A stretch of 64,000 nt of DNA from contig JBGPKT010000001.1 of assembly GCA_041486115.1 (NCBI GenBank), forward strand, positions 405-64,404, read 5' to 3'. Positions 4,647-36,243 of this stretch are shown here, piece after piece. Every line of letters starts with the position of its first letter. Within the stretch, counting starts at the first letter, position 1. The notes beneath the pieces were generated by a model. It was not told the DNA's origin and searched no databases. It was given only the letters and a program-made list of their open reading frames with translations. The DNA is from Nitrospiria bacterium (lineage in GTDB: Bacteria; Nitrospirota; Nitrospiria; JACQBW01). Made by a program: the position numbers and the translations under genes.

Positions 4647-4652
4647 AATACC

Positions 4653-5513
4653 TCAAGGGTTACAGTTATTTTTTATCATTTGCTTTTTACGATCGACAAA
4701 ATCCTGAAGCGCATCCCTCAGGTAATTTGTCTTTTCCCGGATTTCTTTGGAGACCCTTCCCTGATAAAGTTTTTCCGCTTCGGCCATATCCTCTTTCAAT
4801 AACTCTTCGACATTCCCGTTTTCGATTCCCTCTTCAATCGTCTTTTGATTGTAAAGCGCGATATCCGAGACGATCAGACGGGCAAACCGTTTCGCCTCTT
4901 CATGCCGGACCGCCTCCTCAGGTGGAATACCGGGCTCTTTTTGCGGGGGACTCAGGGGCACGGGCGCAGCGGCTGTTTCTGCCGTCGTTTCTGGCTGAAG
5001 AACGGGTTGAGCGACCGGCTCCAGAGAGAATTCTACCGGCTCCTGAGGCGGCGGCAGACTGACGGGCGCCGACAACACTTCGGCCGCGGGCGCCGAAGTC
5101 GCATTGACCGCTCCGCCGGAAGGCGCTATCTCCGGAGAAACCTCTCCCAGAATTTTCCTCAGCTTGACAACCATCTGGTCATGGATGTGATGTCTTTCAA
5201 TATAATCATCGGCTCCATAAAGCGACTGCGGCTCCCTTTTATAGCGGGCCTTATCATAAATAGACGACACCAGAACCACTCCGGTGCTTTTTAAATGAGA
5301 GCTTTTTTTTATAATCTCGCAGATTTCAAAACCCAGGACCTGAGGAAGCGCGACATCCAGAAAGGCCGCATGGGGATGTTCCCTGTCTAAAATAGACAAA
5401 GCTTCTTTTCCCGTTCCTGCCAGGAACACCTCATACCCGGCCTCGGCCAGTATTTCTTTCATGATATCCTGAGTCGCTTCTCCGTCTACCGCAACGAGAA
5501 TTTTTTGGCTCAT
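4653..5513 (-). CDS. response regulator: REC + Pro/Ala-rich linker + uncharacterised C-terminal helical domain
   Basis: REC fold (KILVAVDGE...FLDVALP), linker PAAEVLSAPVSLPPPQEP..., C-terminal EEAKRFARLIVSDIALYNQKTIEEG. Confidence 0.8.
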   Translation of the reverse strand: MSQKILVAVDGEATQDIMKEILAEAGYEVFLAGTGKEALSILDREHPHAAFLDVALPQVLGFEICEIIKKSSHLKSTGVVLVSSIYDKARYKREPQSLYGADDYIERHHIHDQMVVKLRKILGEVSPEIAPSGGAVNATSAPAAEVLSAPVSLPPPQEPVEFSLEPVAQPVLQPETTAETAAAPVPLSPPQKEPGIPPEEAVRHEEAKRFARLIVSDIALYNQKTIEEGIENGNVEELLKEDMAEAEKLYQGRVSKEIREKTNYLRDALQDFVDRKKQMIKNNCNP

Positions 5514-5534
5514 GTTTTCCTCAATTTCCTCTCC

Positions 5535-5987
5535 TCAAACCAGTTGATTCAGCATTTGATAGGCTTCCAGATCCAGTATCTTTTCCATGTCCAGAAGGAG
5601 AATTAATTCGTCTTTATGCTTGAATATTCCTTTAAGGTATTTATTCTCACGGCTGTCTTCAAAAGAAGCGGTCAGAAGCTGATTGGCCGAAAAATAAAGG
5701 ACATCTTTGACTTCATCAAGAATCAATCCCATGAAGGTTTTCTTAAACCTGATAATCAGGATATGTTGGGGTTCCACATCCTCCCTGGGGTTCATTTCGA
5801 GTATCTGTCTGAGATCAATAATGGGGATCACCCTGTCCCGCAGGTTAATCACTCCTTTAAACGGCTCTTTTAATTGCGGGACCTCCATTGGTTTTTTATA
5901 ATAAATAATTTCAACAATTCCGGATAAAGGCAGAGAAAATGCCTTTTCCTGAAGATTAAATCGGAGAATTTTAAAATCAGAACTCAT
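5535..5987 (-). CDS. cheW: chemotaxis coupling protein CheW
   Basis: 150 aa, a single CheW-like domain (FSLPLSGIVEII...VIPIIDLR). Confidence 0.85.
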   Translation of the reverse strand: MSSDFKILRFNLQEKAFSLPLSGIVEIIYYKKPMEVPQLKEPFKGVINLRDRVIPIIDLRQILEMNPREDVEPQHILIIRFKKTFMGLILDEVKDVLYFSANQLLTASFEDSRENKYLKGIFKHKDELILLLDMEKILDLEAYQMLNQLV

Positions 5988-8760: not shown

Positions 8761-10796
8761 ATCTTTTTATTTTTCTTTAAAACCTCGTCGATTAACATCG
8801 CGACATCCAGGACAAGAATAATTTTTTTATTCCCCAGTTCACAGGCCCCCGCTATTCCGGGAAGGGTGCCCAAAACTCCCCCCAGAGATTTAATGACAAT
8901 TTCCTGCTGGCCCAAAAGGTGTTCTACGACCAGTCCGATCCGCTTTTCCGCGGCGCCGATCACAATCACATAAAGAGACCCCTGATTGGAGTCCGCGGTC
9001 TCCAGCCGGAACAGCTCTTCCAGTCGCAAAAGAGAAATCGTCTGCTCCCTGAGTTGAATGACCTCCCTCCCGTCGACCGATTGGATGTCCTTCCGGTTCA
9101 CCATCAGACTTTCAGACACCGAGTTGATGGGGATCGCATAGGTGTTCCCCCCTATTTTAACGATCAGCGCCCGGATAATAATCAAGGTGATCGGAAGGGT
9201 AATAGAAAATTTCGCGCCCCTTCCGGGTTCCGATTCCACGCTCACCATTCCGGACATTTTGGCGATATTTTTTGCCACGACGTCCAGGCCGACTCCGCGG
9301 CCGGAAAGGTCTGTAATGGTTTTACTCGTACTGAACCCGGGGAGGAAAAGAAAATCAACAAGTTCTTTTCGGGAATATTCTTTCTTCGGGTCCGCCAGAT
9401 TTTTTTCAAGGGCTTTCTGATAGACCGCCGAAAGTTCAATGCCCTGACCATCATCTTCGACTTCAACAAGCACATGGTTCCCTTTTTGAAAAGCCCTCAA
9501 ATAAATATTTCCGGTTTCAGGCTTTCCGGCGGCGGCTCTTTCGTCCTTCGATTCAAGACCATGATCGATCGCATTTCGGATCAGATGCATGATAGGGTCC
9601 GCGATTGATTCAATCATCGACTTGTCGAGAGCGGTCTCTTCCCCTGAAATATGAATATTGACCGGTTTTTTTATCTCTCTTGAAATCTTTCTGACCATGC
9701 GGACAAACCGGTCGAAGATCTGGCCGATCGGGGTCATTCTGACCTGAATGAGGCTCTCCTGCAGCTCGCCAATTTTTCTGCCGATCCGCTCGAGGGTTTT
9801 CTGAAAATCGAGCCCCGTGTCGGAAAAGCTGTTCTTATCAATCAGCGCATTCCCCTGCTGTTGAATGACCGTTTTACTTAAAACAAGCTCTCCGACGATA
9901 TTCATCAGCACATCCAGTTTGGAAATATCCACCCGGACCGTCTGCGTCACGCTTTTGAGCGACTCAGAAGCTTCATCGTTGGACCCTGCCGGTCCGACCT
10001 GCGGATCGGTAGATCCAAAGACCGGAGCAAGAGGCCCCGCGGACTTCTCGATTTCCGAGATTTCGACGCTCTCTCCGGTCCATTTGACCTCCTTATGAAC
10101 CAGATCTTCTTTGGAAGCGATAATAATTTTGAACAGAATTCCCGCTCCGGGAGAAAGTCCCGATGCGGGGAGAGAAGTGATCACCTCGCCGTGGGGCTTA
10201 ATCTGTTCGAGCGTCCGGCCAAGATCCAGATCAAAAGACTCGATCTTATACTTCACCCGCATTTCAAATATACGCAGTCTGTTTTTAAGGTTTTCCTTCA
10301 AGCGGTGCGTTTCATATTCGGTAAAAGTTTTAAGTATTTCGGGGTCTATCCCCATCCCTTCGCCTACGGGAGCGGGCGCTTCTCCCTCCGAACCCTGAAC
10401 GAGCATCTTTTCAATCCGGCTGATCATCGGGGCGGGGTCGATGGGCTTTTTTTCAGGCGTATTCATTGATTGAAGCATCGTCCTGAGGAGCTGCGTCGCC
10501 TCCGTTAACAGGCTGATCATGGGCTCGGTCACGTTGAGTTTTCCGAGACGAAGCTTGTCTAAAAGATCTTCCATGTGATGGGAAAGGGAAGAAAGCGATA
10601 TCAAGCCGATCATTCCGGCCGCCCCCTTAAGGGTATGGATCGCCCTGAACATCGAATGAACCGTATTCGGAGACGACCCTGAAGCGGAATTCCGCTCGGT
10701 ATCCAGGGCATAAAGGTTCTGCTCCATGCTTTCGATTATTTCTTCGGCTTCGGCCATAAAATCTTTAAGGAGACCGTCTTGTTTTTTAACAGGCAT
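8757..10796 (-). CDS. cheA: chemotaxis histidine kinase CheA
   Basis: Hpt motif HTLKGAAG, HATPase motifs DDGQGI and GRGVGLD, C-terminal CheW-like domain. Linker holds repeat copy D (APVFGSTDPQVGPAG). Confidence 0.92.
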   Translation of the reverse strand: MPVKKQDGLLKDFMAEAEEIIESMEQNLYALDTERNSASGSSPNTVHSMFRAIHTLKGAAGMIGLISLSSLSHHMEDLLDKLRLGKLNVTEPMISLLTEATQLLRTMLQSMNTPEKKPIDPAPMISRIEKMLVQGSEGEAPAPVGEGMGIDPEILKTFTEYETHRLKENLKNRLRIFEMRVKYKIESFDLDLGRTLEQIKPHGEVITSLPASGLSPGAGILFKIIIASKEDLVHKEVKWTGESVEISEIEKSAGPLAPVFGSTDPQVGPAGSNDEASESLKSVTQTVRVDISKLDVLMNIVGELVLSKTVIQQQGNALIDKNSFSDTGLDFQKTLERIGRKIGELQESLIQVRMTPIGQIFDRFVRMVRKISREIKKPVNIHISGEETALDKSMIESIADPIMHLIRNAIDHGLESKDERAAAGKPETGNIYLRAFQKGNHVLVEVEDDGQGIELSAVYQKALEKNLADPKKEYSRKELVDFLFLPGFSTSKTITDLSGRGVGLDVVAKNIAKMSGMVSVESEPGRGAKFSITLPITLIIIRALIVKIGGNTYAIPINSVSESLMVNRKDIQSVDGREVIQLREQTISLLRLEELFRLETADSNQGSLYVIVIGAAEKRIGLVVEHLLGQQEIVIKSLGGVLGTLPGIAGACELGNKKIILVLDVAMLIDEVLKKNKKI
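9989..10026 (-). repeat. dispersed modular repeat copy D (short tail + one unit), in frame in the cheA linker
   Basis: CCGGTCCGACCTGCGGATCGGTAGATCCAAAGACCGGA. Confidence 0.8.
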
Positions 10797-10800
10797 TGTA

Positions 10801-11175
10801 TTAACTCATGACCTTCTGGATAATTTTTTTAAGATTTTCCGGGAGAAAGGGCTTTGTAATATACTCTGATGCTCCGAGCGCCAGCCCTTTTTGGATCTCT
10901 TTTTCCCCCTGTTCGGTCGAAACAATGATCATGGGGATAGATTTGTATTCCGGATGGCCTTTGACAAAGCTGACCACTTCAAGGCCATTAATATTCGGCA
11001 TGTTAATATCCGTGATAATCAGATCAAATTTCTGGGTCGGAAGGGTTTTCAAAGCCTCTATGCCGTTTGTCACCTCAACCGCTTCATACCCGGACAGGTC
11101 TTCTATCGTGTCCACAATGAGAGACCTCATTGTAGACGAATCCTCCACCACCATGACTTTCTTATTCATCTTCAT
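10801..11175 (-). CDS. cheY: CheY-like single-domain response regulator
   Basis: 124 aa REC; DLIITDINMP phospho-acceptor region; conserved K in ITKPF. Confidence 0.85.
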   Translation of the reverse strand: MKMNKKVMVVEDSSTMRSLIVDTIEDLSGYEAVEVTNGIEALKTLPTQKFDLIITDINMPNINGLEVVSFVKGHPEYKSIPMIIVSTEQGEKEIQKGLALGASEYITKPFLPENLKKIIQKVMS

Positions 11176-11235
11176 CGCTCAACTTCCCTTCATATAAAAA
11201 ATAGCCGACAATCGGAATTCTGTCTAATCACACTT

Positions 11236-12372
11236 TCAGGGTTTCTTCTCCGGCGACACTTTTCCAAATGCAAAACCGGCCACTTTGATAAAGGTTTCCA
11301 GCCCCTCTGTTGCGCCAATGGGCTGAGGCAAAGGGAGATTATCTCCATAGAGAAAAGCGATGACCCTCCCTTCGCTGACAATCGGAGCCACAAGAACCTC
11401 TTCGGGCCACTCTCCTCCCAAATGGGTGATCATTTCTGAGTTCCATTTATTGGCTTCGAGCTTTCCCCTGAGGCTCCGTTTTTGACTAAGACACCCTTTA
11501 AAAACGGAATCTTCCGATAGGGGAATTTTTATTCTCCGCACTTCCTGATCGGACGATTTCCCAGGCAAAACAATGCCGGATTGCCCCCATCCGAGAATCT
11601 CCTCTTTCTTAATGAGGAAGACGACTGTCCGATTTAAAATTTCTCCCGCAAAACGGAGAATCAATAAGATGATTTCTCCTCCCGACGAAGGAGAGGACAA
11701 CTCATCAATCATCGTATTGAGGATCTGCAAGTCTTTCCTGATCCCGCTTTCTTCCTCCGGGCCCATTTTCTCAATAGCGGCTTCTTTTTGAATTTCATCC
11801 TGAAAACTGGGTGCTTTTGGAGGAGGCGCTTCCGGCGAGGCTTCTTCGAACGAACCCATCGAGTCAAAGTTTCCGGGCTCATCCAGACCGCCTTGTTCAT
11901 CTGAAATCCTTGCCCCTTCCAGCAAGAGGTATTCCGCGCTCATTCCTTTTGAAAGAATAATGGATTCATCCCCCGGGGGAGTTCCCAGCTCAAAATGGAA
12001 ATTTCCTTTTTTCCAGCGCAGCAGTTCCTGGACCACCGCTGAAATATGGAGGCGGACTTCTTTTTCAAGGACTGCTCTATCGATTCCCATTTCATACAGG
12101 ATCGTTCCGAGGGGTTTTTTCTGAATCCCCTGGCTTTGCAGGGAAAGGGCCTTTGATAAAAGGTCATTCGGAACAATTCCTTTTTTAACTAATTTCTCGC
12201 CGAGCAAACCCTTGGAAGAAAGACTGCCAAAAACAATCTGGCCCTTGCTGAAATAAACAGACCCGGAGTCATTCTGATGGATGATCGATAACTCTCCGGA
12301 CCGCTTGCTTAAGCTTAATATCTGGATAATATCGGTAAGCCCGAGGTCTTCGAGCTGCCCTTCTAAACTCAT
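11236..12372 (-). CDS. DUF4388 (PATAN-like) domain protein with GAF-like C-terminal region; first gene of the che operon
   Basis: N-terminus LEGQLEDLGLTDIIQILSLSKRSGEL matches my memory of the DUF4388 signature. Acidic linker, then an alpha/beta C-terminal domain. Confidence 0.65.
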   Translation of the reverse strand: MSLEGQLEDLGLTDIIQILSLSKRSGELSIIHQNDSGSVYFSKGQIVFGSLSSKGLLGEKLVKKGIVPNDLLSKALSLQSQGIQKKPLGTILYEMGIDRAVLEKEVRLHISAVVQELLRWKKGNFHFELGTPPGDESIILSKGMSAEYLLLEGARISDEQGGLDEPGNFDSMGSFEEASPEAPPPKAPSFQDEIQKEAAIEKMGPEEESGIRKDLQILNTMIDELSSPSSGGEIILLILRFAGEILNRTVVFLIKKEEILGWGQSGIVLPGKSSDQEVRRIKIPLSEDSVFKGCLSQKRSLRGKLEANKWNSEMITHLGGEWPEEVLVAPIVSEGRVIAFLYGDNLPLPQPIGATEGLETFIKVAGFAFGKVSPEKKP

Positions 12373-19144: not shown

Positions 19145-19260
19145 TTTTTCACCGGCTCCTTATTCAACACGTGTTCAAACCTTTTAACGGACTCAAGAAT
19201 AACTCTTTTAAATATATAAGAACGGGAGACGAAAATCAACATCGCGTTGTCCCCCTAAAA

Positions 19261-19374
19261 CAGAGATAGGATTTGCAACCCCTTGTTTTGCCTGTCATCG
19301 CGAGCACCCATAGGGTGCGTGGCGATCTCGGTTCAAGATGGCGAGATTGCTTCGCTTCGCTCGCAATGACAACT
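19261..19374 (+). repeat. about 114-nt REP/MITE-like palindromic element, copy 1
   Basis: CAGAGATAGGATTTGCAAC...TGTCATCGCGAGCAC...GCGATCTCGG...CGAGATTGC...GCTCGCAATGACAACT, with nested inverted repeats. Near-identical copy at 36131-36243. Confidence 0.85.
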
Positions 19375-25181: not shown

Positions 25182-25198
25182 AGCAATCTTAATGCCAG
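25182..25198 (-). promoter_or_regulatory. sigma-54 (-24/-12) promoter for porin-amtB-glnK
   Basis: Minus strand reads CTGGCAT-TAAGA-TTGCT, matching TGGCAC-N5-TTGCW. About 75 nt upstream of the porin ATG (25108). Confidence 0.75.
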
Positions 25199-25365: not shown

Positions 25366-25393
25366 ACATAAATGTATGAAGCTACATTTATGT
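25366..25393. repeat. 11-bp perfect inverted repeat ACATAAATGTA-N6-TACATTTATGT
   Basis: Overlaps the mog stop codon and lies about 170-190 bp upstream of the sigma-54 promoter. Candidate enhancer-binding-protein site or weak terminator. Confidence 0.45.
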
Positions 25394-25918
25394 TTTCCTC
25401 CTGACCAAAGTCAGGGCGCATTCCGCCGGATCCCCTTTTATCTTCTCCAAAACATGGGGAAGTACCGGTAAAAGGATATCGAAACTCTCCCGCACTCCTT
25501 TGGGACTTCCCGGGAGGTTGATAATCAAAGTTTCATTCCGGGTGCCGACCACTCCCCGTGAAATCATCGCCCGGAAAGTCTTTTTATATCCTTCGATCCG
25601 CATCGCCTCGGCCATACCGGGGATTTCCCGATCAATCACCCGGAGCGTCGCATCAGGTGTCACGTCCCTGGGGCTTACCCCCGTTCCACCGGTGGTCACC
25701 ACAAGGTCTATGGCCCCGTTATCGGAAAGGAATTTTAATTTCTCCTCGATCTCTCGTTGTTCATCCGGCAGAACTTCGTACACGGCCACTCTGGCCGGGA
25801 GTTTTTCCAGCATCTGATAAAGGATCTTGCCGCTGGTATCTTCCCGCTCTCCACGGGCGCCCCTGTCGCTAAGCGTTAATATAGCCGCTCTCCACATTTT
25901 CACCATCTCCTTATTCAT
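25388..25918 (-). CDS. mog: molybdenum cofactor biosynthesis protein MoaB/Mog family
   Basis: LTLSDRG..., TTGGTGVSPRDVTPDA motif. Confidence 0.85.
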   Translation of the reverse strand: MNKEMVKMWRAAILTLSDRGARGEREDTSGKILYQMLEKLPARVAVYEVLPDEQREIEEKLKFLSDNGAIDLVVTTGGTGVSPRDVTPDATLRVIDREIPGMAEAMRIEGYKKTFRAMISRGVVGTRNETLIINLPGSPKGVRESFDILLPVLPHVLEKIKGDPAECALTLVRRKT

Positions 25919-25927
25919 GCTCCTTAT

Positions 25928-27142
25928 TCATGACGGGAGGAGTTGCACGGTCGCCTTTTCCCCCGCGTGAAACGACTCCCGGTCCTCCGGCAGGACCACC
26001 AGGCTATTGGCCTGAGCCATCGACAGCGAAATGCCGCTCCCCTGATCGCCGGTGAATCGGGTGCGATACCCCCCGCTCTTCCAGATCGTTACCGCCCGGA
26101 TAAAGTGTCTGGTGCCGGGCGGTTTCCGGTAATCTTCTTCCAGTTCGGCCTCCACCAGGGGGAGACTTGTTTCCCCGGCTCCGATCATTTTCCGGATTGC
26201 CGGACGGACAAACTGATAAAAAGTGACCATGCAGGAGACCGGATTGCCCGGGAGGCCGAAAAGAAGCCCCGCTCCCTCCCGTATTGTCCAGAAAGTCATC
26301 GGATGGCCCGGCCGCATCGCAACCTGCCAGAATTTCATTTCGCACTCCAGGTTCTTGAGGACCTCTTTCACAAAGTCATATTTCCCTTTTGAGACGCCGC
26401 CGGCAACGATCGCGATATCGCCGGAGAGCGCTTCTCCGATCTTGCTCTCCAGGTCTTTCTCCCTGTCCAGGGCCGCCGGCAGGGTCACCGGAATTCCGCC
26501 CGATTCCCTGACGAGCGCCGCAAGAGCATAACTGTTGCTATTGACAATCATTCCCGGATCAAGGGCCTCTCCCGGTTCCGCCAATTCGTCTCCCGTGGCC
26601 AAAACGGTAACGACAGGTCTCCGATAGACCAGTACCGAGGCATAACCCGCAGTGGCAAGAAGTCCTATCTCCCCGGGCCGTCCCCGGGTGCCAGCCGGAA
26701 TCACCGGATCCCCTTCCTTGACATCTTCACCTTTTAACCGGATATGTTCTCCCTTTTCACAGGGTTTGAAGACCTTCACCTGATCTCCCGCTCGCCCGGT
26801 ATTTTCTACCCTGACCACCGCATCGGCGCCCGGCGGGATAGGCGCGCCGGTCATAATCTGAATCGCCTCTCCGCGGCCCACCGGCCGGAAGGGCATCTTG
26901 CCCGCCTGCAGTTCTCCCACCACGTTGAGGGTCGCCGGAGAATCCGGCGTTGCGTCGCGGATATCTTCCCGGCGGACCGCATATCCATCCATGGCCGAAT
27001 TGTCCCACGGGGGATGTTCTCTCCGCGAGACGATCTCTTCGGCCAGAACCCGTCCGAAAACATCCTGAATCGGCACCCGCTCTTTTCCCATGCGGCGAGT
27101 CTGACCTAAAATAATTTTAAGGGCTTCATCCACTGAAACCAT
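25928..27142 (-). CDS. moeA: molybdopterin molybdenumtransferase MoeA
   Basis: 404 aa: MoeA N-, MoCF-binding (TGDEL, GGVSKGKYD) and C-terminal domains. Confidence 0.9.
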   Translation of the reverse strand: MVSVDEALKIILGQTRRMGKERVPIQDVFGRVLAEEIVSRREHPPWDNSAMDGYAVRREDIRDATPDSPATLNVVGELQAGKMPFRPVGRGEAIQIMTGAPIPPGADAVVRVENTGRAGDQVKVFKPCEKGEHIRLKGEDVKEGDPVIPAGTRGRPGEIGLLATAGYASVLVYRRPVVTVLATGDELAEPGEALDPGMIVNSNSYALAALVRESGGIPVTLPAALDREKDLESKIGEALSGDIAIVAGGVSKGKYDFVKEVLKNLECEMKFWQVAMRPGHPMTFWTIREGAGLLFGLPGNPVSCMVTFYQFVRPAIRKMIGAGETSLPLVEAELEEDYRKPPGTRHFIRAVTIWKSGGYRTRFTGDQGSGISLSMAQANSLVVLPEDRESFHAGEKATVQLLPS

Positions 27143-27161: not shown

Positions 27162-28424
27162 TTAAACTCCGGGAACCGGAACCCGCTTCATCAAAAACTC
27201 CGCCGTCATCCCGGCGGCAAAACCGACGGCAATATTGCCGGTTCCCGCTGACACGGTTCCAATCAAAAGAACGACGAAAGCCGCATTCCTTCCGGAAAAG
27301 ACATCCCGGACCAAAAGCCCATGTTCCACGCCCGCATAAACCAGAAACGCCCCCAGGATGGGAACAGGAATAAGGGCAAAGAGGCGGTGGACCGAATTTC
27401 CAAATAAAAAACCTGACGCAAGAAAGAGGAGACCTGTAAAGATCGTCGCTCTGCCGGTTCTGGCGCCGAAGAGGTAATGGGACGTCAACCCGCCTGCGCC
27501 ATGACAGCAGGGAAGCCCGCCGAAAAACCCCCCCAGCAAATTTCCCAGGCCCAAAGAGACGCAGAGGGCCCGGGGCGTTACTTTTTTAGCTTGCTGTCCG
27601 AAATAATCCCGTGAGACCTGGCAGCAAGAGACTACCGAGTTGGCAAAGGTCAGGGGAATTTGCGGGATCACCAGCAAGGCAAAAGCCGTTCCAAGTTCAT
27701 TCCAGGAAGGGACGATCGGTTCCGGAAAAGCGCGAGGGCTCCCCGGGAGAGGGAACAAAGGGTAGGGCATTCGGAATTGATGATCCGATGCAAGTCCAAT
27801 CACGGCCCCCAAAAGCATCCCCGCCGGAAGAATAATCATCGTCGCCGGAATTTTGGTCTTTGGTAACAGGAGAAAGAGAAACAGACCTGTTCCGATTCCT
27901 AAAACCATGGAAAAATAAGGCGATTCGAAGACCGGCCCCATTCCGGAAAAGATTTTAGCCGGAGACATCATCAGCGAGAGCCCCTGCTTGACAAGGAACA
28001 GCCCGATGGCCAGTTGAATCCCCCTGATGACCGGCCGGGTGAAAATCTTCTCGAGAAGGCTGGCCAGGTTTCCGAAGGCCAGAATCAGCAAAATTCCGCC
28101 CATCAGAATACCGGCGGCTCCGACCAGCCGGGAGGAGGCCCCCATCGCTAGCGCCGTTACGGCCATTGCCTTAAGGGGCTGAACAGGGAGCGGTATTTTA
28201 AAATAATAGCCGGTTATCAGATAATGGAAGCCGATAAAAATAAAGACCGCCGCAGGCGACAGCCCGTTATTCATGATCAGCAGAATCGCCAGAGGGAGGA
28301 GAATTCCCAGGTCCCCGAGCCCCCCTCCGATCTCCCGGACAAATCGTGAACTCCCATGCGTCTGAATCAATTGGCCCTCCGGATGACTTTCATCTCTTCG
28401 GGGGTATTGATATTGGTCAGGCAT
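27162..28424 (-). CDS. putative sulfate/molybdate transporter (MOT1-like, SulP-related membrane protein)
   Basis: About 10-12 TM helices. N-terminal GGLGDLGILLPLA resembles the MOT1-family signature as I recall it. Embedded between mobA and moeA. The annotated start overlaps the mobA 3' end by 58 nt, so the true start may be internal. Confidence 0.6.
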   Translation of the reverse strand: MPDQYQYPRRDESHPEGQLIQTHGSSRFVREIGGGLGDLGILLPLAILLIMNNGLSPAAVFIFIGFHYLITGYYFKIPLPVQPLKAMAVTALAMGASSRLVGAAGILMGGILLILAFGNLASLLEKIFTRPVIRGIQLAIGLFLVKQGLSLMMSPAKIFSGMGPVFESPYFSMVLGIGTGLFLFLLLPKTKIPATMIILPAGMLLGAVIGLASDHQFRMPYPLFPLPGSPRAFPEPIVPSWNELGTAFALLVIPQIPLTFANSVVSCCQVSRDYFGQQAKKVTPRALCVSLGLGNLLGGFFGGLPCCHGAGGLTSHYLFGARTGRATIFTGLLFLASGFLFGNSVHRLFALIPVPILGAFLVYAGVEHGLLVRDVFSGRNAAFVVLLIGTVSAGTGNIAVGFAAGMTAEFLMKRVPVPGV

Positions 28425-28945
28425 TTCAGATCCGGATCTAAATGCCTGATTTCAGCGACCGGGATCACCAGGGTATTGATCCTTTTAAGGAAGTCCATCA
28501 TTTTAACTTCTCTTTTCTTGAGAAGCTTTTCCATGGACGGAAGAACGCCCCTGGAATAAACGCCATGAAGCGGATGCAGTCCGTCCGGGGATTTAAGCAC
28601 CACGGCATCAAAATGGTTAAGTTTTTCGGTTAAAAACCGGATCACTTCCGGATTCAAAAACGGCATATCGCAGGCAACCGCAAAAACCGGCCCTTTTGAC
28701 TGGAAAAGACCGGTATAAATGCCCCCCATCGGCCCACCGTCCGGATAAATATCGACGTAAACAGGAACGCCAAACGATAAAAATGGCTCCCTCTTTTTGG
28801 CAATGATCATCCTGTCGTTAAAAAGGGGGATCAAAGTGTCCAGGGTCCGTTGAATCAGGCTTTTCCCTTTAAATTCCATAAACGCCTTATCTTTTCCCAT
28901 CCGGAGGCTTTCGCCGCCGGCCAGAACAATAGCCGTCATCTCCAT
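28367..28945 (-). CDS. mobA: molybdenum cofactor guanylyltransferase MobA
   Basis: MEMTAIVLAGGESLRMGKDK is the MobA signature. Start placed at an internal ATG of the 273-aa ORF. Confidence 0.8.
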   Translation of the reverse strand: MEMTAIVLAGGESLRMGKDKAFMEFKGKSLIQRTLDTLIPLFNDRMIIAKKREPFLSFGVPVYVDIYPDGGPMGGIYTGLFQSKGPVFAVACDMPFLNPEVIRFLTEKLNHFDAVVLKSPDGLHPLHGVYSRGVLPSMEKLLKKREVKMMDFLKRINTLVIPVAEIRHLDPDLKCLTNINTPEEMKVIRRAN

Positions 28946-29188
28946 CTGTGATGTCCTCCCTGGATTCCCGCTTTCGCGGGAATGGCGATTTCTTGCGAAA
29001 CCATAATAGTCAATCCTATCTCGTGGAATCTGATATTTTTTAATTTTGTAGGATAAAATCCGTTCCGTAAGATCGAGCTGTCTGGCCGCTTTCGCAATGA
29101 CCCCGTTATTCTCTTTCATCGCTTTAAGAATCAGCTCTTTTTCCAGGGCTTCGACGGTTTTTTTTAATGAAATCGCGGAGGTTAACAT
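28946..29188 (-). CDS. Fis-type HTH DNA-binding module, reading through a REP element into mobA with no stop
   Basis: KTVEALEKELILKAMKENNGVIAKAARQLDLTERILSYKIKKYQI resembles the C-terminal HTH of NtrC/Fis proteins. ATG overlaps the nirD stop (ATGTTAA). No in-frame stop before mobA. Confidence 0.45.
28960..28991 (-). repeat. REP-like hairpin element (CCCGCGAAAGCGGG core), inside the ORF
   Basis: CTGGATTCCCGCTTTCGCGGGAATGGCGATTT. The reverse complement matches 12941-12975. Translated in frame as RNRHSRESGNPG. Confidence 0.75.
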
Positions 29189-31904: not shown

Positions 31905-33569
31905 TCAGTGGGTTCTACTTAAAACGCCGACGGCCTCATCTTCTGCTAATCCGGTTTCCCTTGCATAAGCTTCAAAACCTTTATTTTTTAAGAAAAAAGC
32001 TCCCGGCATGGTCGTCGGAATCACCACCGCATAAAAAAGAGCGCGATCAACGATCTGCCAGGCCAAAACCAGAAAGAAAGAGAATAATACCGATCCATAA
32101 AAAAGCGGAGAGAGCGGAAGCAAAAACAGGTTCAACATATTGAGTCCGAGAATTCCGGATAATCGGCCGTTCAACTTGAGGAATGCAGGATAAGTTTCCT
32201 GAAGGAGTTTGAAAGACGCCTGCGACTCTCCGCTGGCTCTTTTTAAATAGGCGTGAAACCTTTGCCGGGAAAGGGAGAAAAAAAATAAATAGAACGCAGT
32301 GATTCCGGTGAGGCCAAATTTTAATATCGTGTAAAAACCGGCTTCCTTGTTTCCCGATGGAAAACCGGACAACAGCGGAATGAAGAGAATGAGGGCCGTT
32401 GAAAAGGCTCCTAAGAGGACCATGCTCCCGCAAAAGGAGACTGCCGTATGGGAATGGTTCCAGAAAGGACGTGCCGGTATCCGGTAACATTTTGTCATGG
32501 CAAAGAGACTGCAGAGCCCGACGAAAGCGGTCGCCGCGCCAATGGAATGAATGAACATATCTGGAAGGAGATGAAAAGTTTCTAAAATCGCGTAGACCGT
32601 CATACCGCCAAAAAAGCTCCCAACCGTTAGAATCTCTCTGCTGACCCAGGAGTAACGAAGATTATTCAAGGCCCGGTAGCAAAATTGAGGTTTTCCCAGA
32701 TGTCCGGTGGAAAGGGCCAATCCGATAAACAGAGCTCCGATAAAAACGATGAAAGCCACTCGCTCTAAAAAAGAGGAAATGAACGAGGGATAAAAAAGAG
32801 AAACCCCGATAAAGGTTAAAAAACCTCCCACCGACATTTGAGCGAGCAGGGTAAAAAAAACCAGAGGTGTTTCACTGGAATGGATTGATTTCCATGAGAG
32901 CGGTTTCGCCTCCAGCGGCCTCACCCCCCCGCCTTGAGACTGTTTGTTGATATAGGCCACGGACTCCAGATCGGTCCGGAACTGGACTTCTGGCGTTTTA
33001 ATCACCTGCTTAAACCGGATATTGGGTTGAGAGATGGAAGGTTCCGGGAAACCGGCAATTTGAATCAGCGCCTGGCCTCGTTCTCTTTCCATCGCCGCCA
33101 CTTCCCCAAATTCAAGAGCGTGGCCCAGGCATGCGGACACACAGGCCGGTTTTAATCCCGCATCCAGCCGGTCGACGCACATATTGCATTTGCTGACGGA
33201 ACCGGCTTCGGGATTATAAACCGGCGCATTGTAGGGACAGACCCAGGTGCAATATTGACAGCCAAAGCAGATGTCGGAATCCTGTATGACGGCGCCATAC
33301 TTTTCATATTTAACATACGCTCCCGTGGGGCACCCTTTTAAACAGACCGGGTCGGTGCAGTGATTGCAGGCCATCGAGGTGTTGACCCGTGTAAAAAGAG
33401 GATAAGACCCCCCTTCCAGATAACCGACTTTCCGCCAGGCAATATGAGAAGGGAGATTGTTTTTTTCACTGCAAGCCGCTTCACAGGAATGACAACCGAT
33501 GCAATTGTCCGCGGTAAAATGGAAACCCATCTGGGTTTGAACCGGAAACAGGACCAAGGCGTTGTTCAT
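31905..33569 (-). CDS. fusion of a DmsB/NrfC-like four-cluster ferredoxin with a DmsC-like polytopic membrane anchor
   Basis: N-terminal Cys motifs CIGCHSCEAAC, CNHCTDPVCLKGCP, CFGCQYCTWVCP, CNMCVDR...C. The C-terminal about 340 aa contain about 8-10 hydrophobic helices. Confidence 0.8.
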   Translation of the reverse strand: MNNALVLFPVQTQMGFHFTADNCIGCHSCEAACSEKNNLPSHIAWRKVGYLEGGSYPLFTRVNTSMACNHCTDPVCLKGCPTGAYVKYEKYGAVIQDSDICFGCQYCTWVCPYNAPVYNPEAGSVSKCNMCVDRLDAGLKPACVSACLGHALEFGEVAAMERERGQALIQIAGFPEPSISQPNIRFKQVIKTPEVQFRTDLESVAYINKQSQGGGVRPLEAKPLSWKSIHSSETPLVFFTLLAQMSVGGFLTFIGVSLFYPSFISSFLERVAFIVFIGALFIGLALSTGHLGKPQFCYRALNNLRYSWVSREILTVGSFFGGMTVYAILETFHLLPDMFIHSIGAATAFVGLCSLFAMTKCYRIPARPFWNHSHTAVSFCGSMVLLGAFSTALILFIPLLSGFPSGNKEAGFYTILKFGLTGITAFYLFFFSLSRQRFHAYLKRASGESQASFKLLQETYPAFLKLNGRLSGILGLNMLNLFLLPLSPLFYGSVLFSFFLVLAWQIVDRALFYAVVIPTTMPGAFFLKNKGFEAYARETGLAEDEAVGVLSRTH

Positions 33570-35836
33570 ATTTTTTCCGCCTCATTTAAAATTTTCACCG
33601 CGCACTGCTTATAGGCCGGCTGTCTGGAGTAAGGGTCCAATAACCCAAGGGAGAGCAGATTTGCCCCGCGGGTAAAATGAAACGGAATGAACACCATCCC
33701 GGGAGGAACCCGTTCCGTCATTTGCACCATGGCTTTCAATTCCCCTCTTCGTGAAATAATCCAGGCATGGCCCATATGGTTCAGGTTTAACTTCTGTCCG
33801 TCCGCCGGATTCATTTCGACATAAGCGATGGGAGAAAACTTGTTTAAATTTCCGATTTTTCCCGTTTTTGTGCGGGTATGCCAGTGCTCAATTACCCGGC
33901 CGGTATTCAACCAGAACGGGTATTCCGCATCGGGCCGTTCGTTGTTATCTATAAAATCAAGCGGGATCAGTTTTGCTTTTCCTGATGCCGTTGAAAACAA
34001 GCCGTCTGAATATAATCGGGGAGTCCCCGGTTTAGCTTCTGAATCGTTGAAACCGACTAGAGATTCAGCTTCGCCGAGGGACTGAGGTTTGAGCATCAGG
34101 CTTTGCCTTTGCGAAAACGGGGCTTGAGGGCATTGAGTGTGGTTTACGAAGGCCCCCAAATCTTTTGCCGGCCATTGGATCCCTCCATATTGCTTCAGTA
34201 AATCGTAATTCATGCCTGAATAGTCGCATAACCTTCCGCGGCTCACCTCTCCCATTTCAGCAAAAACAGTTTCGGCGGTTTTATTCTTCATTAAATACCC
34301 GAGCCCCATTTTTTCCGCCAGCTCGACAAATATGTCTAAATCCGGTTTTGCTTCACCCGGGGGCTCAACCGCTTTTTCAACCAGGTTCACCCTTCTTTCT
34401 GTATTCGTAAAAGTCCCTGTTTTTTCACTCCACATGGCCGCAGGGAGATACACATCCGCATATTGGGCCGATTCCACAGAGAAATAAATATCCTGGACCG
34501 CTAAAAACTCGAGTTGATTTAACATTTTTGCGATTCGACCGGTATCCGGCATCGAGGTCATCGGATTAGTGGCAATGAGCCAGAGTCCTTTGATGTTCCC
34601 TTTTTCAATCTCCGGAAAGATATCGGTCATCTGTAAACCCCGTTTGGCCGGAAAAATGGATTCATCGACTCCCCAGAAATCGGCAATTTCTTTCCGATGC
34701 TCCGGATTTTCAAGTTGGCGGTAAGCCGGCAGGCCGGAGCAGGATGAAAATTCACGCGTTCCCATCGCGTTGCATTGGCCGGTAATGGACAGCGAAGTTC
34801 CTCCCGGTTTGCCAATATTTCCTGTCATCAGCGCAAGATTATTGATGGCGACGACGCCGTCCGATCCATGGGTGGACTGATTAATTCCCATGGTCCATAT
34901 CGACATCGCCGATTTTGCCCTGCCATAAATCCGGGCGACCCTGATCAGGGTCTCTTTCGGGATACCGGTGATTTTTTCCGCGTAAGCCGGGGTAAATTTT
35001 GAAACCATCACCTTAAATTCAGAAAATCCTTCGGTATGGGACGTTATATAATCTTCTTTGTGCAACCCCTCCGCCAAAATAACGTGCGCCAATGCATTCA
35101 ACAGCACCACGTCGGTTCCGGGTAAAATGGGAAGATGAATGTCGGCCATCTGGGCAAACATGGTGACTCTTGGATCGATGACGATTACCGGAAAATGGCG
35201 TTTTTCCAGTTCAGTCTTCAGCCGGTAATAAATAATGGGATGACATTCCACTAAATTGGAACCGAAAGCGAGTAAACATTCCGTATGTTCAAAATCGTCA
35301 TAACACCCGGGCGGGCCATCGCTTCCAAATGACCTTTTATATCCTGAAACGGCGCTGGCCATGCAAAGGGTAGTATTGCCATCAAGATTATTAGTCCCAA
35401 ACCCACCCCGGACCAGCTTGCCCAGGGCATAAAACTCTTCCGTATAAATCTGGCCGGTGCTGACCACCGCCAGCGCATCTTTTCCGTAGGTCTTCATGAT
35501 CCGATGAAATTCAGAAGCGGTATGGTCCAGCGCTTTGTCCCAGGTGACCCGTTCAGGAGAAACCCCTTTTTCTTTTCTTAAAAGAGGAACCTCTCCCCGC
35601 TCCCGGGTCGTCATCGCTTCAAATTCCCAGATCCCCTTTAAACAAAGTTTTCCCTGATTGACCGGATGATCACTTTTTCCCCGGACAGTCACGGCTTTTC
35701 CATCTTTCACTCCCAGTTCGATTCCGCACCCCGTGGAACAATAACCGCAAGTCGTATAGATCCACCGGTCTACCGGCTTCTGATGTATTTTTGGAACCCT
35801 GTCTTGCCTCTGCTTGTTCGTAAACCATAGTTTCAT
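33566..35836 (-). CDS. molybdopterin (bis-MGD) oxidoreductase, assimilatory nitrate reductase-like, no Tat signal
   Basis: N-terminal 4Fe-4S motif CGYCSTGCG...LCLKG. 756 aa MopB family. The N-terminus lacks a twin-arginine motif. Upstream of nirBD. Confidence 0.8.
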   Translation of the reverse strand: MKLWFTNKQRQDRVPKIHQKPVDRWIYTTCGYCSTGCGIELGVKDGKAVTVRGKSDHPVNQGKLCLKGIWEFEAMTTRERGEVPLLRKEKGVSPERVTWDKALDHTASEFHRIMKTYGKDALAVVSTGQIYTEEFYALGKLVRGGFGTNNLDGNTTLCMASAVSGYKRSFGSDGPPGCYDDFEHTECLLAFGSNLVECHPIIYYRLKTELEKRHFPVIVIDPRVTMFAQMADIHLPILPGTDVVLLNALAHVILAEGLHKEDYITSHTEGFSEFKVMVSKFTPAYAEKITGIPKETLIRVARIYGRAKSAMSIWTMGINQSTHGSDGVVAINNLALMTGNIGKPGGTSLSITGQCNAMGTREFSSCSGLPAYRQLENPEHRKEIADFWGVDESIFPAKRGLQMTDIFPEIEKGNIKGLWLIATNPMTSMPDTGRIAKMLNQLEFLAVQDIYFSVESAQYADVYLPAAMWSEKTGTFTNTERRVNLVEKAVEPPGEAKPDLDIFVELAEKMGLGYLMKNKTAETVFAEMGEVSRGRLCDYSGMNYDLLKQYGGIQWPAKDLGAFVNHTQCPQAPFSQRQSLMLKPQSLGEAESLVGFNDSEAKPGTPRLYSDGLFSTASGKAKLIPLDFIDNNERPDAEYPFWLNTGRVIEHWHTRTKTGKIGNLNKFSPIAYVEMNPADGQKLNLNHMGHAWIISRRGELKAMVQMTERVPPGMVFIPFHFTRGANLLSLGLLDPYSRQPAYKQCAVKILNEAEKI

Positions 35837-35959
35837 CTATTTTTATTTGAGGGCCTTCGAGACTACGCTCTCAATGTCCCCAATCCCTAACATGAGTGCC
35901 TAATGCATTGGATGGCCGGATTAAAACAATAATTTCTTTCATTTATCTTGAACTATAGA

Positions 35960-35975
35960 GCAATAGGTATGCCAG
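35960..35975 (-). promoter_or_regulatory. sigma-54 (-24/-12) promoter for the nitrate/nitrite/Moco operon
   Basis: Minus strand reads CTGGCAT-ACCTA-TTGC. About 125 nt upstream of the ATG at 35836. Confidence 0.75.
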
Positions 35976-36130
35976 ATTAATTAATTAACTTATCCTGCTG
36001 ATTTCAAACGAAAATTTTAAAAACATCCAGGATAGGGACTTTAAAAATCATTCAAAAATGTAGGTCAATTTGGAAGGTACGACAATTTTGTCTGAATGGC
36101 ATCATTCGGTTTTTCTGATTGTCCCGAGAA

Positions 36131-36243
36131 CAGAGATATGATTTGCAACTTCTTGTTTCGCCTGTCATCGCGAGCACCATAGGGTGCGTGGCGATCTCGG
36201 TTCAAGAAGGCGAGATTGCTTCCCTTCGCTCGCAATGACAACT
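36131..36243 (+). repeat. about 114-nt REP/MITE-like palindromic element, copy 2
   Basis: Same orientation as 19261-19374. By manual alignment, 7 differences including one 1-nt indel. Confidence 0.85.

Follow-up and report, generated by a model that had tools for sequence, protein, structure and literature searches.

The genes encoding P0001 and P0002, which lie within a stretch of 64,000 nucleotides (the window) from an uncultured Nitrospiria bacterium, on balance seem to specify a cytoplasm-facing quinol:nitrate oxidoreductase that serves assimilation. Together, the two products would form a membrane-bound nitrate reductase of two genes and three modules with its active site in the cytoplasm. 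Quinol is the probable first donor because the only candidate nitrate reductase of the genome adjoins a fusion of an iron-sulfur wire and an inward-facing, quinol-type anchor. No description of a membrane quinol-fed assimilatory nitrate reductase of this layout was found in the searchable literature. Both genes are intact, and the features of the region are compiled in Table 1.

Table 1. Features of the nas operon and of the adjoining porin-amtB unit, with positions in the window.
Feature	Position	Strand	Basis
Sigma-54 -24/-12 consensus TGGCATACCTATTGCT, 123 nt upstream of the P0001 ATG	35959-35974	-	
P0001, catalytic subunit, Tat-less Mo-bisMGD enzyme of the Nas/Nap superclade, 756 aa	33566-35836	-	domains, motifs, trees
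P0001 Cys158 codon	35363-35365	-	
P0002, FeS-DmsC fusion, 554 aa	31905-33569	-	domain content
P0002 residues 1-190, DmsB-type domain with four [4Fe-4S] clusters, no signal peptide	33000-33569	-	
P0002 residues 191-233, linker between FeS domain and first membrane helix	32871-32999	-	
P0002 residues 234-516, eight-helix DmsC/NrfD-type anchor, predicted N-in	32022-32870	-	
P0002 H290 codon	32700-32702	-	
P0002 E312 codon	32634-32636	-	
P0002 residues 517-554 and stop codon, conserved basic C-terminal tail, predicted cytoplasmic	31905-32021	-	
nirB, NAD(P)H nitrite reductase large subunit, 806 aa	29477-31897	-	TIGR02374, 889 bits (cut-off 578)
nirD, Rieske-type small subunit, 100 aa	29182-29484	-	
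MobA, Mo-cofactor guanylyltransferase (needed for bis-MGD), N-terminal Fis-type HTH_8 domain	28367-29188	-	
MOT1-family molybdate transporter	27162-28424	-	
MoeA (Mo insertion)	25928-27142	-	
MoaB/Mog-type MoCF_biosynth protein	25388-25918	-	
Second sigma-54 consensus TGGCATTAAGATTGCT, 74 nt upstream of the porin-amtB unit	25182-25197	-	

P0001 comprises the domains Molybdop_Fe4S4, Molybdopterin and Molydop_binding. Its FS0 cysteines are C30, C33, C37 and C65 (CGYCSTGCG...LCLKG), the Mo-ligand motif reads TTLC158MASAV, and Arg361 (GTREF) aligns with the active-site arginine region of Desulfovibrio desulfuricans NapA, the best solved relative (486 bits), in which LCMASAV is also kept. At the N-terminus (MKLWFTNKQRQDRVPKIHQKPVDRW), neither a twin-arginine motif nor a hydrophobic stretch is present, and the Nas/Nap-type cluster motif without Tat signal described in the first-pass annotation was thus recovered. 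A C-terminal BFD domain is absent. P0001 reached none of the curated equivalog cut-offs, scoring 514 with the NasC model (cut-off 1100), 478 with that of haloarchaeal NasA (1000) and 477 with that of NapA (904); the NarG model gave 52 bits. The top NCBIfam match was the broad Fdh-alpha model (616, cut-off 666). This rank is not diagnostic, since proteins within the classical NasA clade, e.g. P0133, also score highest with Fdh-alpha. Furthermore, the ligand motif of P0001 is Cys-Met while all aligned formate dehydrogenases have Cys/Sec-His.

In phylogenetic trees, the fusion-partnered molybdoenzymes formed one clade (support 100) apart from classical NasA, NapA and formate dehydrogenases. Membership of P0001 in the classical NasA/NapA clade was ruled out by an AU test (p = 0.0006) and by this separate position. 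The trees were calculated without cyanobacterial NarB or Bacillus NasC references, and the haloarchaeal NasA (P0250), the sole curated assimilatory reference possibly belonging to the P0001 group, shifted its position between them. The other group members carry nitrate reductase annotations and occur in nitrate-assimilation contexts. Clustering with a non-nitrate clade, which the first-pass annotation had named as counter-evidence, was not observed, given the Cys-Met motif, the starred branches that separate P0001 from the formate dehydrogenase clade and the nitrate-annotated neighbours.

The partner protein P0002 contains 16 cysteines in four groups of the C-x2-C-x2-C-x3-C type (C23 to C147), and its FeS domain is 37% identical to E. 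coli DmsB across the whole DmsB length. A DmsC domain (PF04976) spans residues 232-513, and a profile comparison with E. coli DmsC (hhalign) covered all eight helices with a probability of 99.2%, as expected for the four-cluster ferredoxin fused to a polytopic DmsC-like anchor that had been noted before. In the AF2 model, the membrane domain has pLDDT values mostly above 90 and the FeS domain is of low confidence (35-55); Foldseek matched the membrane domain to PsrC and to ActC/ActF of ACIII. The C-terminal tail follows the conserved pattern PTTMPGAFF.KNKGFE..AR.TGLA. By alignment, S287, H290, S307 and E312 correspond to S62, H65, S82 and E87 of E. coli DmsC, whose roles in the quinol site were taken from PMC8076601; binding or oxidation of quinol is impaired in H65 and E87 mutants (PMC8076601). 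All four residues are invariant in 46 family sequences, although the mean column identity of this set is only 45%. This invariance argues for a quinol route and for the earlier suggestion that a Nas-like enzyme receives its electrons from a membrane quinol-linked partner.

Regarding the orientation of the anchor, lysine and arginine residues were counted in the odd loops and in the even loops plus C-terminal tail. P0002 gave 1/17, and the mean of 45 relatives was 0.73/16.2, the two counts differing by at least 12. For a SoeC-type anchor of Azospirillum, 0/16 was obtained, and for E. coli DmsC 6/3. In a Tat-type relative (L053), the C subunit had 8/7, or 13/6 when counted by hand. Moreover, neither a Tat motif nor a hydrophobic stretch preceding the first cluster was found in 119 family members. 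Due to this lack of an export signal and the positive-inside bias, FeS domain and quinol loop are both predicted to face the cytoplasm, which is the orientation of the SoeC-type anchor and the reverse of that of E. coli DmsC. A periplasmic FeS domain, which would have been incompatible with a catalytic subunit lacking a Tat signal, is therefore not what the topology suggests.

The pairing of the two genes is not due to chance. The 4-nt overlap noted at first sight is real (ATGA), each of the 11 related loci fetched first has the gene of a molybdoenzyme of 59-84% identity immediately upstream of the fusion, and the survey of Nitrospirota revealed the same position in 13 of the 16 genomes carrying the fusion. 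The adjacency is kept across Nitrospirota as well as Alpha-, Beta- and Gammaproteobacteria. In a sister lineage (51% identical), a Fer4_11-DmsC fusion overlaps the molybdoenzyme gene, accompanied by genes for an MFS transporter, a fused NirBD and a GAF-ANTAR regulator. Other relatives have a P-II gene between nirB and the fusion, or adjacent cobA or ANTAR genes, and at two proteobacterial loci (L009 and L010) the pair shares a cluster with a classical BFD-type NasA. Two sister molybdoenzymes lack a membrane partner; P0156 is accompanied only by an MFS transporter and Moco genes, P0128 by a GltD-like subunit.

The nirB gene starts 7 nt past the end of the P0002 gene and is followed by nirD and the genes for MobA, MOT1, MoeA and MoaB/Mog; GlnD and Amt genes are neighbours of the operon. 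NirB carries BFD-type [2Fe-2S] domains. The window contains two matches to the sigma-54 consensus where 0.07 were expected, and the 2.46-Mb genome only 22. Three of them, all perfect, lie before the nas operon, porin-amtB and nrtABC, which suggests that the three units are under nitrogen control and belong to a putative common regulon. NrtABC is encoded elsewhere in the genome (contig C8), NrtB and NrtCD exceeding the curated cut-offs. In this genome, which is about 91% complete, neither NarG nor another Nas/Nap-like gene besides P0001 was found, nor were a haem-copper oxidase or DsrA. The assumption that nirBD, the Moco genes and the sigma-54 promoter point to nitrate assimilation is thus strengthened by NrtABC and by the lack of a second nitrate reductase.

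In its architecture, the pair resembles SoeABC of the Allochromatium vinosum/Aquifex aeolicus type, for which the xsc-linked locus of Azospirillum brasilense (L031) served as reference. Both combine a Tat-less, cytoplasm-facing molybdoenzyme with a four-cluster FeS protein and a haem-free, eight-helix DmsC/NrfD-type anchor (N-in) with the quinol/quinone site on the N-side, and the H/S/E quinone residues and the loop HLG.P...RAL....SW.SRE are common to both. However, the catalytic subunits are unrelated at the family level (29% identity over 249 aa, 89 bits), SoeB and SoeC are separate proteins, and SoeABC passes electrons from its substrate to quinone whereas P0001/P0002 would pass them from quinol to nitrate. 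The sequence of P0002 is nearer to DmsB and DmsC than to SoeB and SoeC of this locus. With DmsABC, P0002 shares the collinear FeS domain and anchor and the four quinol-site residues. On the other hand, DmsA is Tat-exported, DmsAB faces the periplasm, the positive loops of DmsC are the odd ones, DmsB and DmsC are separate, and P0001 is Nas/Nap-like with a cysteine ligand rather than a DmsA.

The closest relative of all three modules is an uncharacterised enzyme annotated as nitrate reductase in a Symbiobacteriaceae MAG (L053). Its A subunit is 47% identical to P0001, its separate B and C subunits are 47% (193 bits) and 34.5% (86 bits) identical to P0002, and the Cys-Met motif and the quinol loop are the same. 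By contrast to P0001/P0002, however, the A subunit has a twin-arginine signal (RRAFLK), the B and C genes are separate, the charge pattern of the anchor is outward and DmsC-like, and linkage to nirBD is absent. Due to these separate DmsB- and DmsC-like genes and the outward charge pattern of the Tat-bearing relative, P0002 looks as if it had arisen from an exported enzyme of three subunits by gene fusion and inversion of the anchor. In this scenario, the B and C genes of a Tat-exported nitrate reductase would have been fused, the anchor inverted and the Tat signal of A lost.

Classical assimilatory enzymes (NasA with C-terminal BFD domain from Klebsiella, Ralstonia and others, NasC, NarB and haloarchaeal NasA) agree with P0001 in the cytoplasmic Mo-bisMGD, FS0 and the cysteine ligand motif, and in the linkage to nirBD, nitrate transport and nitrogen control. 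They are, however, soluble and fed by NAD(P)H via NirB/NasB or by ferredoxin/flavodoxin, while P0001 has no BFD domain, scores below every curated cut-off and belongs to a separate clade. NarGHI is likewise membrane-bound and quinol-linked, as proposed for P0001/P0002; its FeS subunit has four clusters, and nitrate is reduced on the cytoplasmic side. Yet NarG, with its aspartate ligand, falls into another MopB clade, and NarI contains di-haem b and oxidizes quinol on the P-side in an electrogenic loop, whereas the P0002 anchor is haem-free with an N-side site.

The same architecture and chemistry could also serve a dissimilatory purpose, as an electron sink or "mini-Nar" that together with NirBD performs fermentative or respiratory DNRA, energy being conserved upstream, e.g. 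by Nuo, and not by the enzyme. This reading is unlikely. In its favour, a terminal electron acceptor is not evident in a genome in which no haem-copper oxidase, DsrA or NarG was found, NirBD serves assimilation and fermentative DNRA alike, and the occurrence beside a classical NasA at L009 and L010 suggests a non-redundant role. The perfect sigma-54 consensus before the operon, porin-amtB and the high-affinity NrtABC genes, the GlnD and Amt neighbours, and P-II, ANTAR and cobA in the clusters of relatives speak against the dissimilatory reading, as does an N-side quinol site, by which the step itself would yield no proton-motive gain. A different substrate is rather improbable: P0001 might reduce another oxyanion or N-oxide, or oxidize formate or another donor towards the quinone pool in the manner of SoeABC, the closest architecture, which runs in the oxidizing direction (PMC8076601). 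The failure to reach any curated nitrate-reductase cut-off, the top score with Fdh-alpha and the distance of the P0001 clade from characterised NasA and NapA would fit this assumption. However, Cys-Met-Ala-Ser-Ala-Val is the Nap/Nas motif, Fdh-alpha is also on top for P0133, the nirBD linkage is constant across loci, and P0001 is the sole nitrate-reductase candidate in a genome with NrtABC and NirBD. Nitrite oxidation is thermodynamically unable to reduce quinone.

It is slightly less probable still that P0002 is a tether and electron relay without quinol, its DmsC domain only localizing the enzyme, e.g. beside the nitrate transporter, and NirB/NADH, ferredoxin or another membrane complex acting as donor. 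BFD-type [2Fe-2S] domains of NirB do feed classical NasA in other organisms, but P0001 is devoid of the C-terminal BFD domain that couples such donors to NasA, and all four quinol-site residues are invariant in 46 diverged sequences. Finally, P0001 could be an ordinary soluble, ferredoxin- or NADH-dependent Nas next to a functionally unrelated fusion gene, as the partnerless P0156 and P0128 might suggest. This is very improbable in view of the translational overlap, the adjacency kept across phyla, the monophyly of the partnered molybdoenzymes and the fact that one Tat-type relative provides the best match for each of the A, B and C parts.

For the favoured quinol:nitrate oxidoreductase, nitrate would enter via NrtABC, and quinol, probably menaquinol, would bind to P0002 where S287, H290, S307 and E312 form a site in the DmsC-type domain, at the cytoplasmic end of its helices 2 and 3. 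Two electrons would pass through the four [4Fe-4S] clusters of its cytoplasmic DmsB-type domain to FS0 and the Cys158-ligated Mo-bisMGD of P0001, where nitrate would be reduced to nitrite, which NirBD would convert to ammonium with NAD(P)H. Since the quinol protons would be released on the side where nitrate reduction consumes protons, this step should be electroneutral, as suits an enzyme of assimilation or an electron sink but not a redox loop of the Nar type. The sigma-54 regulon, nirBD, the NrtABC genes on contig C8 and the lack of another nitrate reductase all favour a role in assimilation. Hence, the first two electrons for nitrate assimilation in this organism probably come from membrane quinol and not from NADH or ferredoxin.

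The molybdoenzyme P0001 and the adjoining FeS-anchor fusion P0002 are both intact and are encoded by overlapping genes, the ATGA at the start of P0002 running over the stop codon of P0001, as described in the first-pass annotation. Other properties listed there were also recovered. The N-terminus of P0001 lacks a twin-arginine motif as well as a hydrophobic core, and no Tat or Sec signal is present, as expected for a protein facing the cytoplasm. The FS0 cysteines of P0001 are C30, C33, C37 and C65, and the Mo ligand motif reads TTLC158MASAV. P0002 starts with a four-cluster ferredoxin part of the DmsB type (16 cysteines in four groups, C23 to C147; 165 bits against TIGR02951), while its residues 232-513 match Pfam DmsC. 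A profile of 46 P0002 relatives could be aligned with all eight helices of E. coli DmsC (probability 99.2%, E = 3e-19). In the AF2 model of P0002, the membrane domain is confident and the FeS domain is of low confidence; Foldseek retrieved generic PsrB/ArrB and PsrC/ActC folds only. The nirB gene (889 bits against TIGR02374) starts 7 nt past P0002 and is followed by nirD and genes for MobA, a MOT1 molybdate transporter, MoeA and MoaB/Mog. MobA carries a Fis-type HTH_8 domain at its N-terminus, and its ORF start overlaps the nirD stop. This domain is usually located at the C-terminus of sigma-54 activators, where it binds DNA. Either a regulator domain has been joined to a cofactor-synthesis enzyme here, which would be unusual, or the domain is a remnant or the start was mis-called.

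Positions of the genes and sequence elements discussed in the text
Feature	Sequence	Position	Strand	Remarks
P0001, molybdoenzyme	window	33566-35836	minus	756 aa; three Pfam domains of molybdopterin oxidoreductase
P0002, FeS-DmsC fusion	window	31905-33569	minus	554 aa; four-cluster domain and DmsC
MobA	window	28367-29188	minus	HTH_8 at residues 12-52
Sigma-54 consensus before BBP2 porin-amtB unit	window	25182-25197	minus	74 nt upstream
Sigma-54 consensus before nrtA	own genome, C8 (L030)	816-831	plus	about 77 nt upstream of likely true start
122-nt element, two copies	window	19253-19374 and 36123-36243		direct orientation, about 93% identity
Qrc/ACIII-like complex	own genome, C3	32885-37751 (L056 385-5252)		QrcB-like MopB, 304 bits; QrcC-like FeS protein, 231 bits; NrfD/DsrP-like membrane subunit
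P0125 and its fusion	L050	5802-9214		400-aa fusion
P0127 and its separate subunits	L053	6001-9764		DmsB-like, 198 aa; DmsC, 311 aa
NirB-like gene, P-II gene and fusion	L048	1141-6494		NirB-like protein of 1061 aa
BFD-type NasA beside the pair	L009 (Burkholderiaceae MAG)	2789-5560		923 aa
BFD-type NasA beside the pair	L010 (gammaproteobacterial MAG)	9397-12102		901 aa

Among proteins of solved structure, P0001 is closest to the periplasmic nitrate reductase of D. desulfuricans (486 bits), in which the LCMASAV stretch is kept, and it has the C-M-(A/S)-S-A-type context of the ligand cysteine expected of assimilatory nitrate reductases. On the other hand, it remained below all NCBIfam equivalog cut-offs tested (NasC, haloarchaeal NasA, NapA and Fdh-alpha), scoring 514 against a cut-off of 1100 for NasC (NF047855) and 478 against 1000 for haloarchaeal NasA (NF041323). 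The scores were 462 bits for NAPA (cut-off 931), 52 bits for narG (cut-off 1084) and 190 bits for dmsA_ynfE (cut-off 778), which separates it from the DmsA family; to a SoeA-family protein it is 29% identical over 249 aa only, SoeA having about 1000 aa. Fdh-alpha was the top NCBIfam match, but this was not taken to indicate a formate dehydrogenase, since the ligand motif differs and the ranking is uninformative, the same model topping the list for proteins inside the classical NasA clade.

Phylogenetic trees were calculated with FastTree (159 rows) and IQ-TREE (52 rows) from 150 representatives of the nearest sequence space, annotated NasA, NapA and FdhF proteins from plasmid records and the partnered molybdoenzymes; cyanobacterial NarB and Bacillus NasC were left out. 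Ten molybdoenzymes partnered with a fusion formed one clade with a support of 100 in both trees. This clade is nested in a group of about 25 rows around P0001 (support 96-99), which stands apart from the classical BFD-type NasA clade, the NapA clade and the formate dehydrogenase clade. The ligand position is occupied by Cys/Sec-His in all formate dehydrogenase rows and by Cys-Met or Cys-Thr in all rows of the P0001 group. An AU test rejected a joint clade of the partnered enzymes and classical NasA (p = 0.00055, for a group named after the tree had been seen). D. desulfuricans NapA, whose sequence was transcribed from the printed PDB-match alignment and which as best PDB match was expected to be a close relative, grouped with NapAB-type NapA and was rejected as such. 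Haloarchaeal NasA P0250 (1227 bits on its own equivalog) fell inside the P0001 group in the FastTree tree and outside it, on a long branch, in the IQ-TREE tree; no biochemically characterised enzyme is securely placed in this group. P0001 lies outside the formate dehydrogenases and has the Cys-Met motif, but it also lies outside the classical NasA and NapA clades. Judged by ligand motif and tree position, P0001 is therefore nitrate-reductase-like, but neither a classical NasA nor a classical NapA.

The nearest lineages of P0001 occur in varied contexts. P0125 (51% identity) has a 400-aa Fer4_11-DmsC fusion upstream, in reversed gene order and with a 4-nt overlap, and is accompanied by an MFS transporter, a fused NirB-NirD and a GAF-ANTAR regulator. 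As called, the FeS part of this fusion begins inside the second cluster region, so that either the ferredoxin domain is shorter or the start was mis-called. P0127 of a Symbiobacteriaceae MAG (47% identity) possesses a twin-arginine signal and is followed by separate DmsB-like and DmsC genes; these genes would encode a putative nitrate reductase of the DmsABC style, exported and free of haem, which itself appears to be uncharacterised. Only an MFS transporter and Moco genes were found next to P0156, a GltD-like subunit next to P0128, a cytochrome b and a multihaem cytochrome next to the Tat-bearing P0126 and a small subunit next to P0144, which also has a Tat signal. As these surroundings show, the P0001-type catalytic subunit exchanges its electron-transfer modules. 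P0002 is 47% (193 bits) and 34.5% (86 bits) identical to the separate B and C subunits of the P0127 system, compared to 37% and 26% for E. coli DmsB and DmsC. The SoeBC-type pair located beside xsc in Azospirillum yielded 29% for SoeB and a local match of 42 aa only for SoeC. Since the B and C parts of P0002 are nearest to the subunits of the P0127 system, all three modules point to one relative.

The anchors appear to be oriented differently. In none of 119 members of the fusion family is the first cluster preceded by a Tat-like motif or a hydrophobic stretch, and the FeS domain therefore has no predicted route out of the cytoplasm. Lysine and arginine residues were counted per loop, with helix boundaries mapped by alignment; basic even loops and C-tail indicate a cytoplasmic FeS domain, as in SoeC, and basic odd loops the orientation of DmsC. 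The four basic residues of the quinol loop between helices 2 and 3 are kept in every protein of this comparison. The sign of the charge bias tracks whether or not the catalytic subunit carries a Tat signal, and the count reproduces the inverted orientation expected for SoeC (PMC8076601). Charge bias and Tat correlation together argue that the anchor of P0002 is inverted relative to DmsC. Thus, the FeS domain, the quinol loop and P0001 are all predicted to lie on the cytoplasmic side, in agreement with the topology that the first-pass annotation required for a Tat-less catalytic subunit.

Basic residues (K+R) in the loops of DmsC-type membrane anchors
Protein	Odd loops	Even loops plus C-tail	Remarks
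P0002	1	17	
45 P0002 relatives (mean)	0.73	16.2	smallest difference 12
400-aa fusion of the P0125 lineage	1	15	
Azospirillum SoeC-type anchor	0	16	
E. coli DmsC	6	3	
C subunit of the Tat-type relative (L053)	8 (13 by hand)	7 (6 by hand)	

An inverted anchor might be a mere tether or contain a working quinol site. The residues S62, H65, S82 and E87 form the quinol site of E. coli DmsC (PMC8076601), H65 and E87 being needed for quinol binding or oxidation according to mutational work cited in the same study. By alignment they correspond to S287, H290, S307 and E312 of P0002, and these four are invariant in an alignment of 46 sequences with a mean column identity of only 45%. Their invariance is the main argument for a working quinol site. 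Quinol oxidation would take place in P0002, where helices 2 and 3 end on the cytoplasmic side; from there the electrons would travel along the four clusters in the N-terminal domain of P0002 and via FS0 to the Mo centre of P0001, which would reduce nitrate to nitrite. By standard potentials, the reaction from quinol to nitrate is strongly exergonic with menaquinol or ubiquinol. Since quinol oxidation would release protons on the side where nitrate reduction consumes them, the step should be electroneutral, provided that the NrfD-type domain is not a proton pump. Where NAD(P)H or reduced ferredoxin come from reverse electron flow, we infer that two low-potential electrons would be spared per nitrate.

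The genomic surroundings bear on the role of such an enzyme. The assembly (2.46 Mb, 202 contigs, about 91% complete) contains neither NarG nor any Nas- or Nap-like gene besides P0001; one further MopB-like complex is Qrc/ACIII-like and is not a nitrate reductase. An NrtABC transporter is encoded, of which NrtB and NrtCD exceed their curated cut-offs. The sigma-54 promoter noticed at first reading was confirmed as a perfect -24/-12 consensus 123 nt upstream of P0001. While 0.07 matches were expected, the window contains two, and three of the 22 strict consensus sites in the genome closely precede the nas operon, the porin-amtB unit and nrtABC. The true start of nrtA is likely M32, which opens an SRRDFIK Tat signal. 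GlnD and Amt are encoded downstream in the window, in which no gene for an NtrC-type activator was identified. The presence of nirBD, NrtABC and the sigma-54 sites and the lack of another nitrate reductase argue for a nitrogen-controlled assimilation pathway that would lead from NrtABC via P0001/P0002 to NirBD. The same enzyme may also serve as an electron sink, as the genome possesses neither a haem-copper oxidase nor DsrA. Two copies of a 122-nt element flank a 16.8-kb nitrogen/molybdenum block in the window. They were considered as borders of a mobile island, which was rejected because about 25 copies of the element are spread over at least 20 contigs; the repeat is dispersed and REP/MITE-like, so that the bracketing is probably coincidental.

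The survey of other genomes suggested at first reading revealed a pairing that is both widespread and conserved. Among 8000 candidates scored, 3574 matched P0002 at E <= 1e-3, and Fer4 and DmsC domains occur together in every one of the best 120 relatives. The 11 loci fetched first, which belong to Nitrospirota, Burkholderiaceae, Rhodospirillaceae and one gammaproteobacterium, all encode a molybdoenzyme 59-84% identical to P0001 directly upstream of the fusion, and in the proteobacterial loci among them nirB-nirD adjoins the pair. In an even sample of Nitrospirota, the fusion was present in 16 of 301 species genomes (13 of 122 genera), so that its distribution is patchy; the molybdoenzyme lies immediately upstream in 13 of the 16. 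The remaining three comprise one copy cut by a contig end and two genomes of one genus with the order nirB, P-II, fusion, contig end. In the latter (L048 and L049), the P-II gene lies between the fusion and a long NirB-like gene with a duplicated NIR_SIR module, and both contigs stop directly after the fusion. A search of plasmids and chromids retrieved no orthologue of P0001 or P0002 from cultured organisms, all matches to P0001 being below 39% identity and those to P0002 covering at most 68% of the protein; these records thus served as a source of outgroup references only. In the Burkholderiaceae and gammaproteobacterial MAGs L009 and L010, the pair and a classical BFD-type NasA share one nirBD cluster, so that two putative nitrate reductases of different electron input are encoded in a single operon.

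By their defining features, classical NasA, NapA, DmsABC, SoeABC and NarGHI do not include the pair. With NasA, NasC and NarB, P0001 shares the FS0 motif, the cysteine ligand motif and the cytoplasmic location; however, those enzymes use a soluble donor (NAD(P)H via NasB/NirB-BFD, or ferredoxin/flavodoxin), whereas P0001 has no BFD domain and is accompanied by a membrane FeS-anchor fusion. NapA carries a Tat signal and works with NapB, NapC or NapGH, while P0001 is Tat-less and outside the clade of D. desulfuricans and NapAB-type NapA. DmsABC resembles P0002 in its four-cluster DmsB-type part and its eight-helix anchor with the equivalents of H65 and E87, but it is Tat-exported with A and B in the periplasm, whereas neither P0001 nor P0002 has a Tat signal and the charge bias is inverted. 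SoeABC is likewise Tat-less and inward-facing with a haem-free inverted anchor (K+R of 0/16 in the SoeC-type reference and 1/17 in P0002). By contrast, the catalytic subunit of the pair is Nas/Nap-like, its B and C modules are fused and DmsBC-like by sequence, and the proposed electron flow is opposite. NarGHI combines NarG with the di-haem anchor NarI; the pair has a DmsC-type anchor without cytochrome b domain and would resemble it in function only.

Two electron routes into bacterial assimilatory nitrate reductases are textbook knowledge, NAD(P)H on the one hand and ferredoxin or flavodoxin on the other, and to our knowledge every nitrate reductase linked to quinol (Nar, Nap) is regarded as dissimilatory. 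We tentatively propose, with slightly less than even confidence, that the pair represents a third, donor-defined class: a haem-free membrane quinol:nitrate oxidoreductase facing the cytoplasm, which would have evolved from a Tat-exported DmsABC-style enzyme by fusion of B and C, flipping of the anchor and loss of the export signal, and which would be widespread and spare NAD(P)H or ferredoxin. No description of a molybdoenzyme paired with an FeS-DmsC fusion was found in full-text literature searches or in PMC8076601, PMC10100899, PMC2607301 and PMC4914600. Levican et al. (2008) reported an unassigned conserved hypothetical gene beside narB in Acidithiobacillus thiooxidans, which may be the fusion. 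The automatic names of fusion relatives include 'DMSO reductase anchor subunit' and 'aspartate carbamoyltransferase'; the latter, present on several public records, is evidently an erroneous annotation that databases have passed on.

Although deduced entirely from sequence, a quinol-fed assimilatory nitrate reductase of this kind is of real interest. If the proposal is true, it would document the topological inversion of a whole module within one protein family, and metagenome matches to 'nasA' or 'narB' would have to be read differently. Such enzymes would occur widely in Nitrospirota as well as in Alpha-, Beta- and Gammaproteobacteria, above all in lithotrophs, and cells would spare NAD(P)H or ferredoxin that only reverse electron flow can supply. 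The cost of nitrate assimilation would have to be rebudgeted in lithoautotrophs, in which NAD(P)H is expensive. The two relatives, one Tat-exported with separate B and C subunits and the other Tat-less with a fused and inverted BC, constitute a natural experiment on a redox module changing its membrane side.
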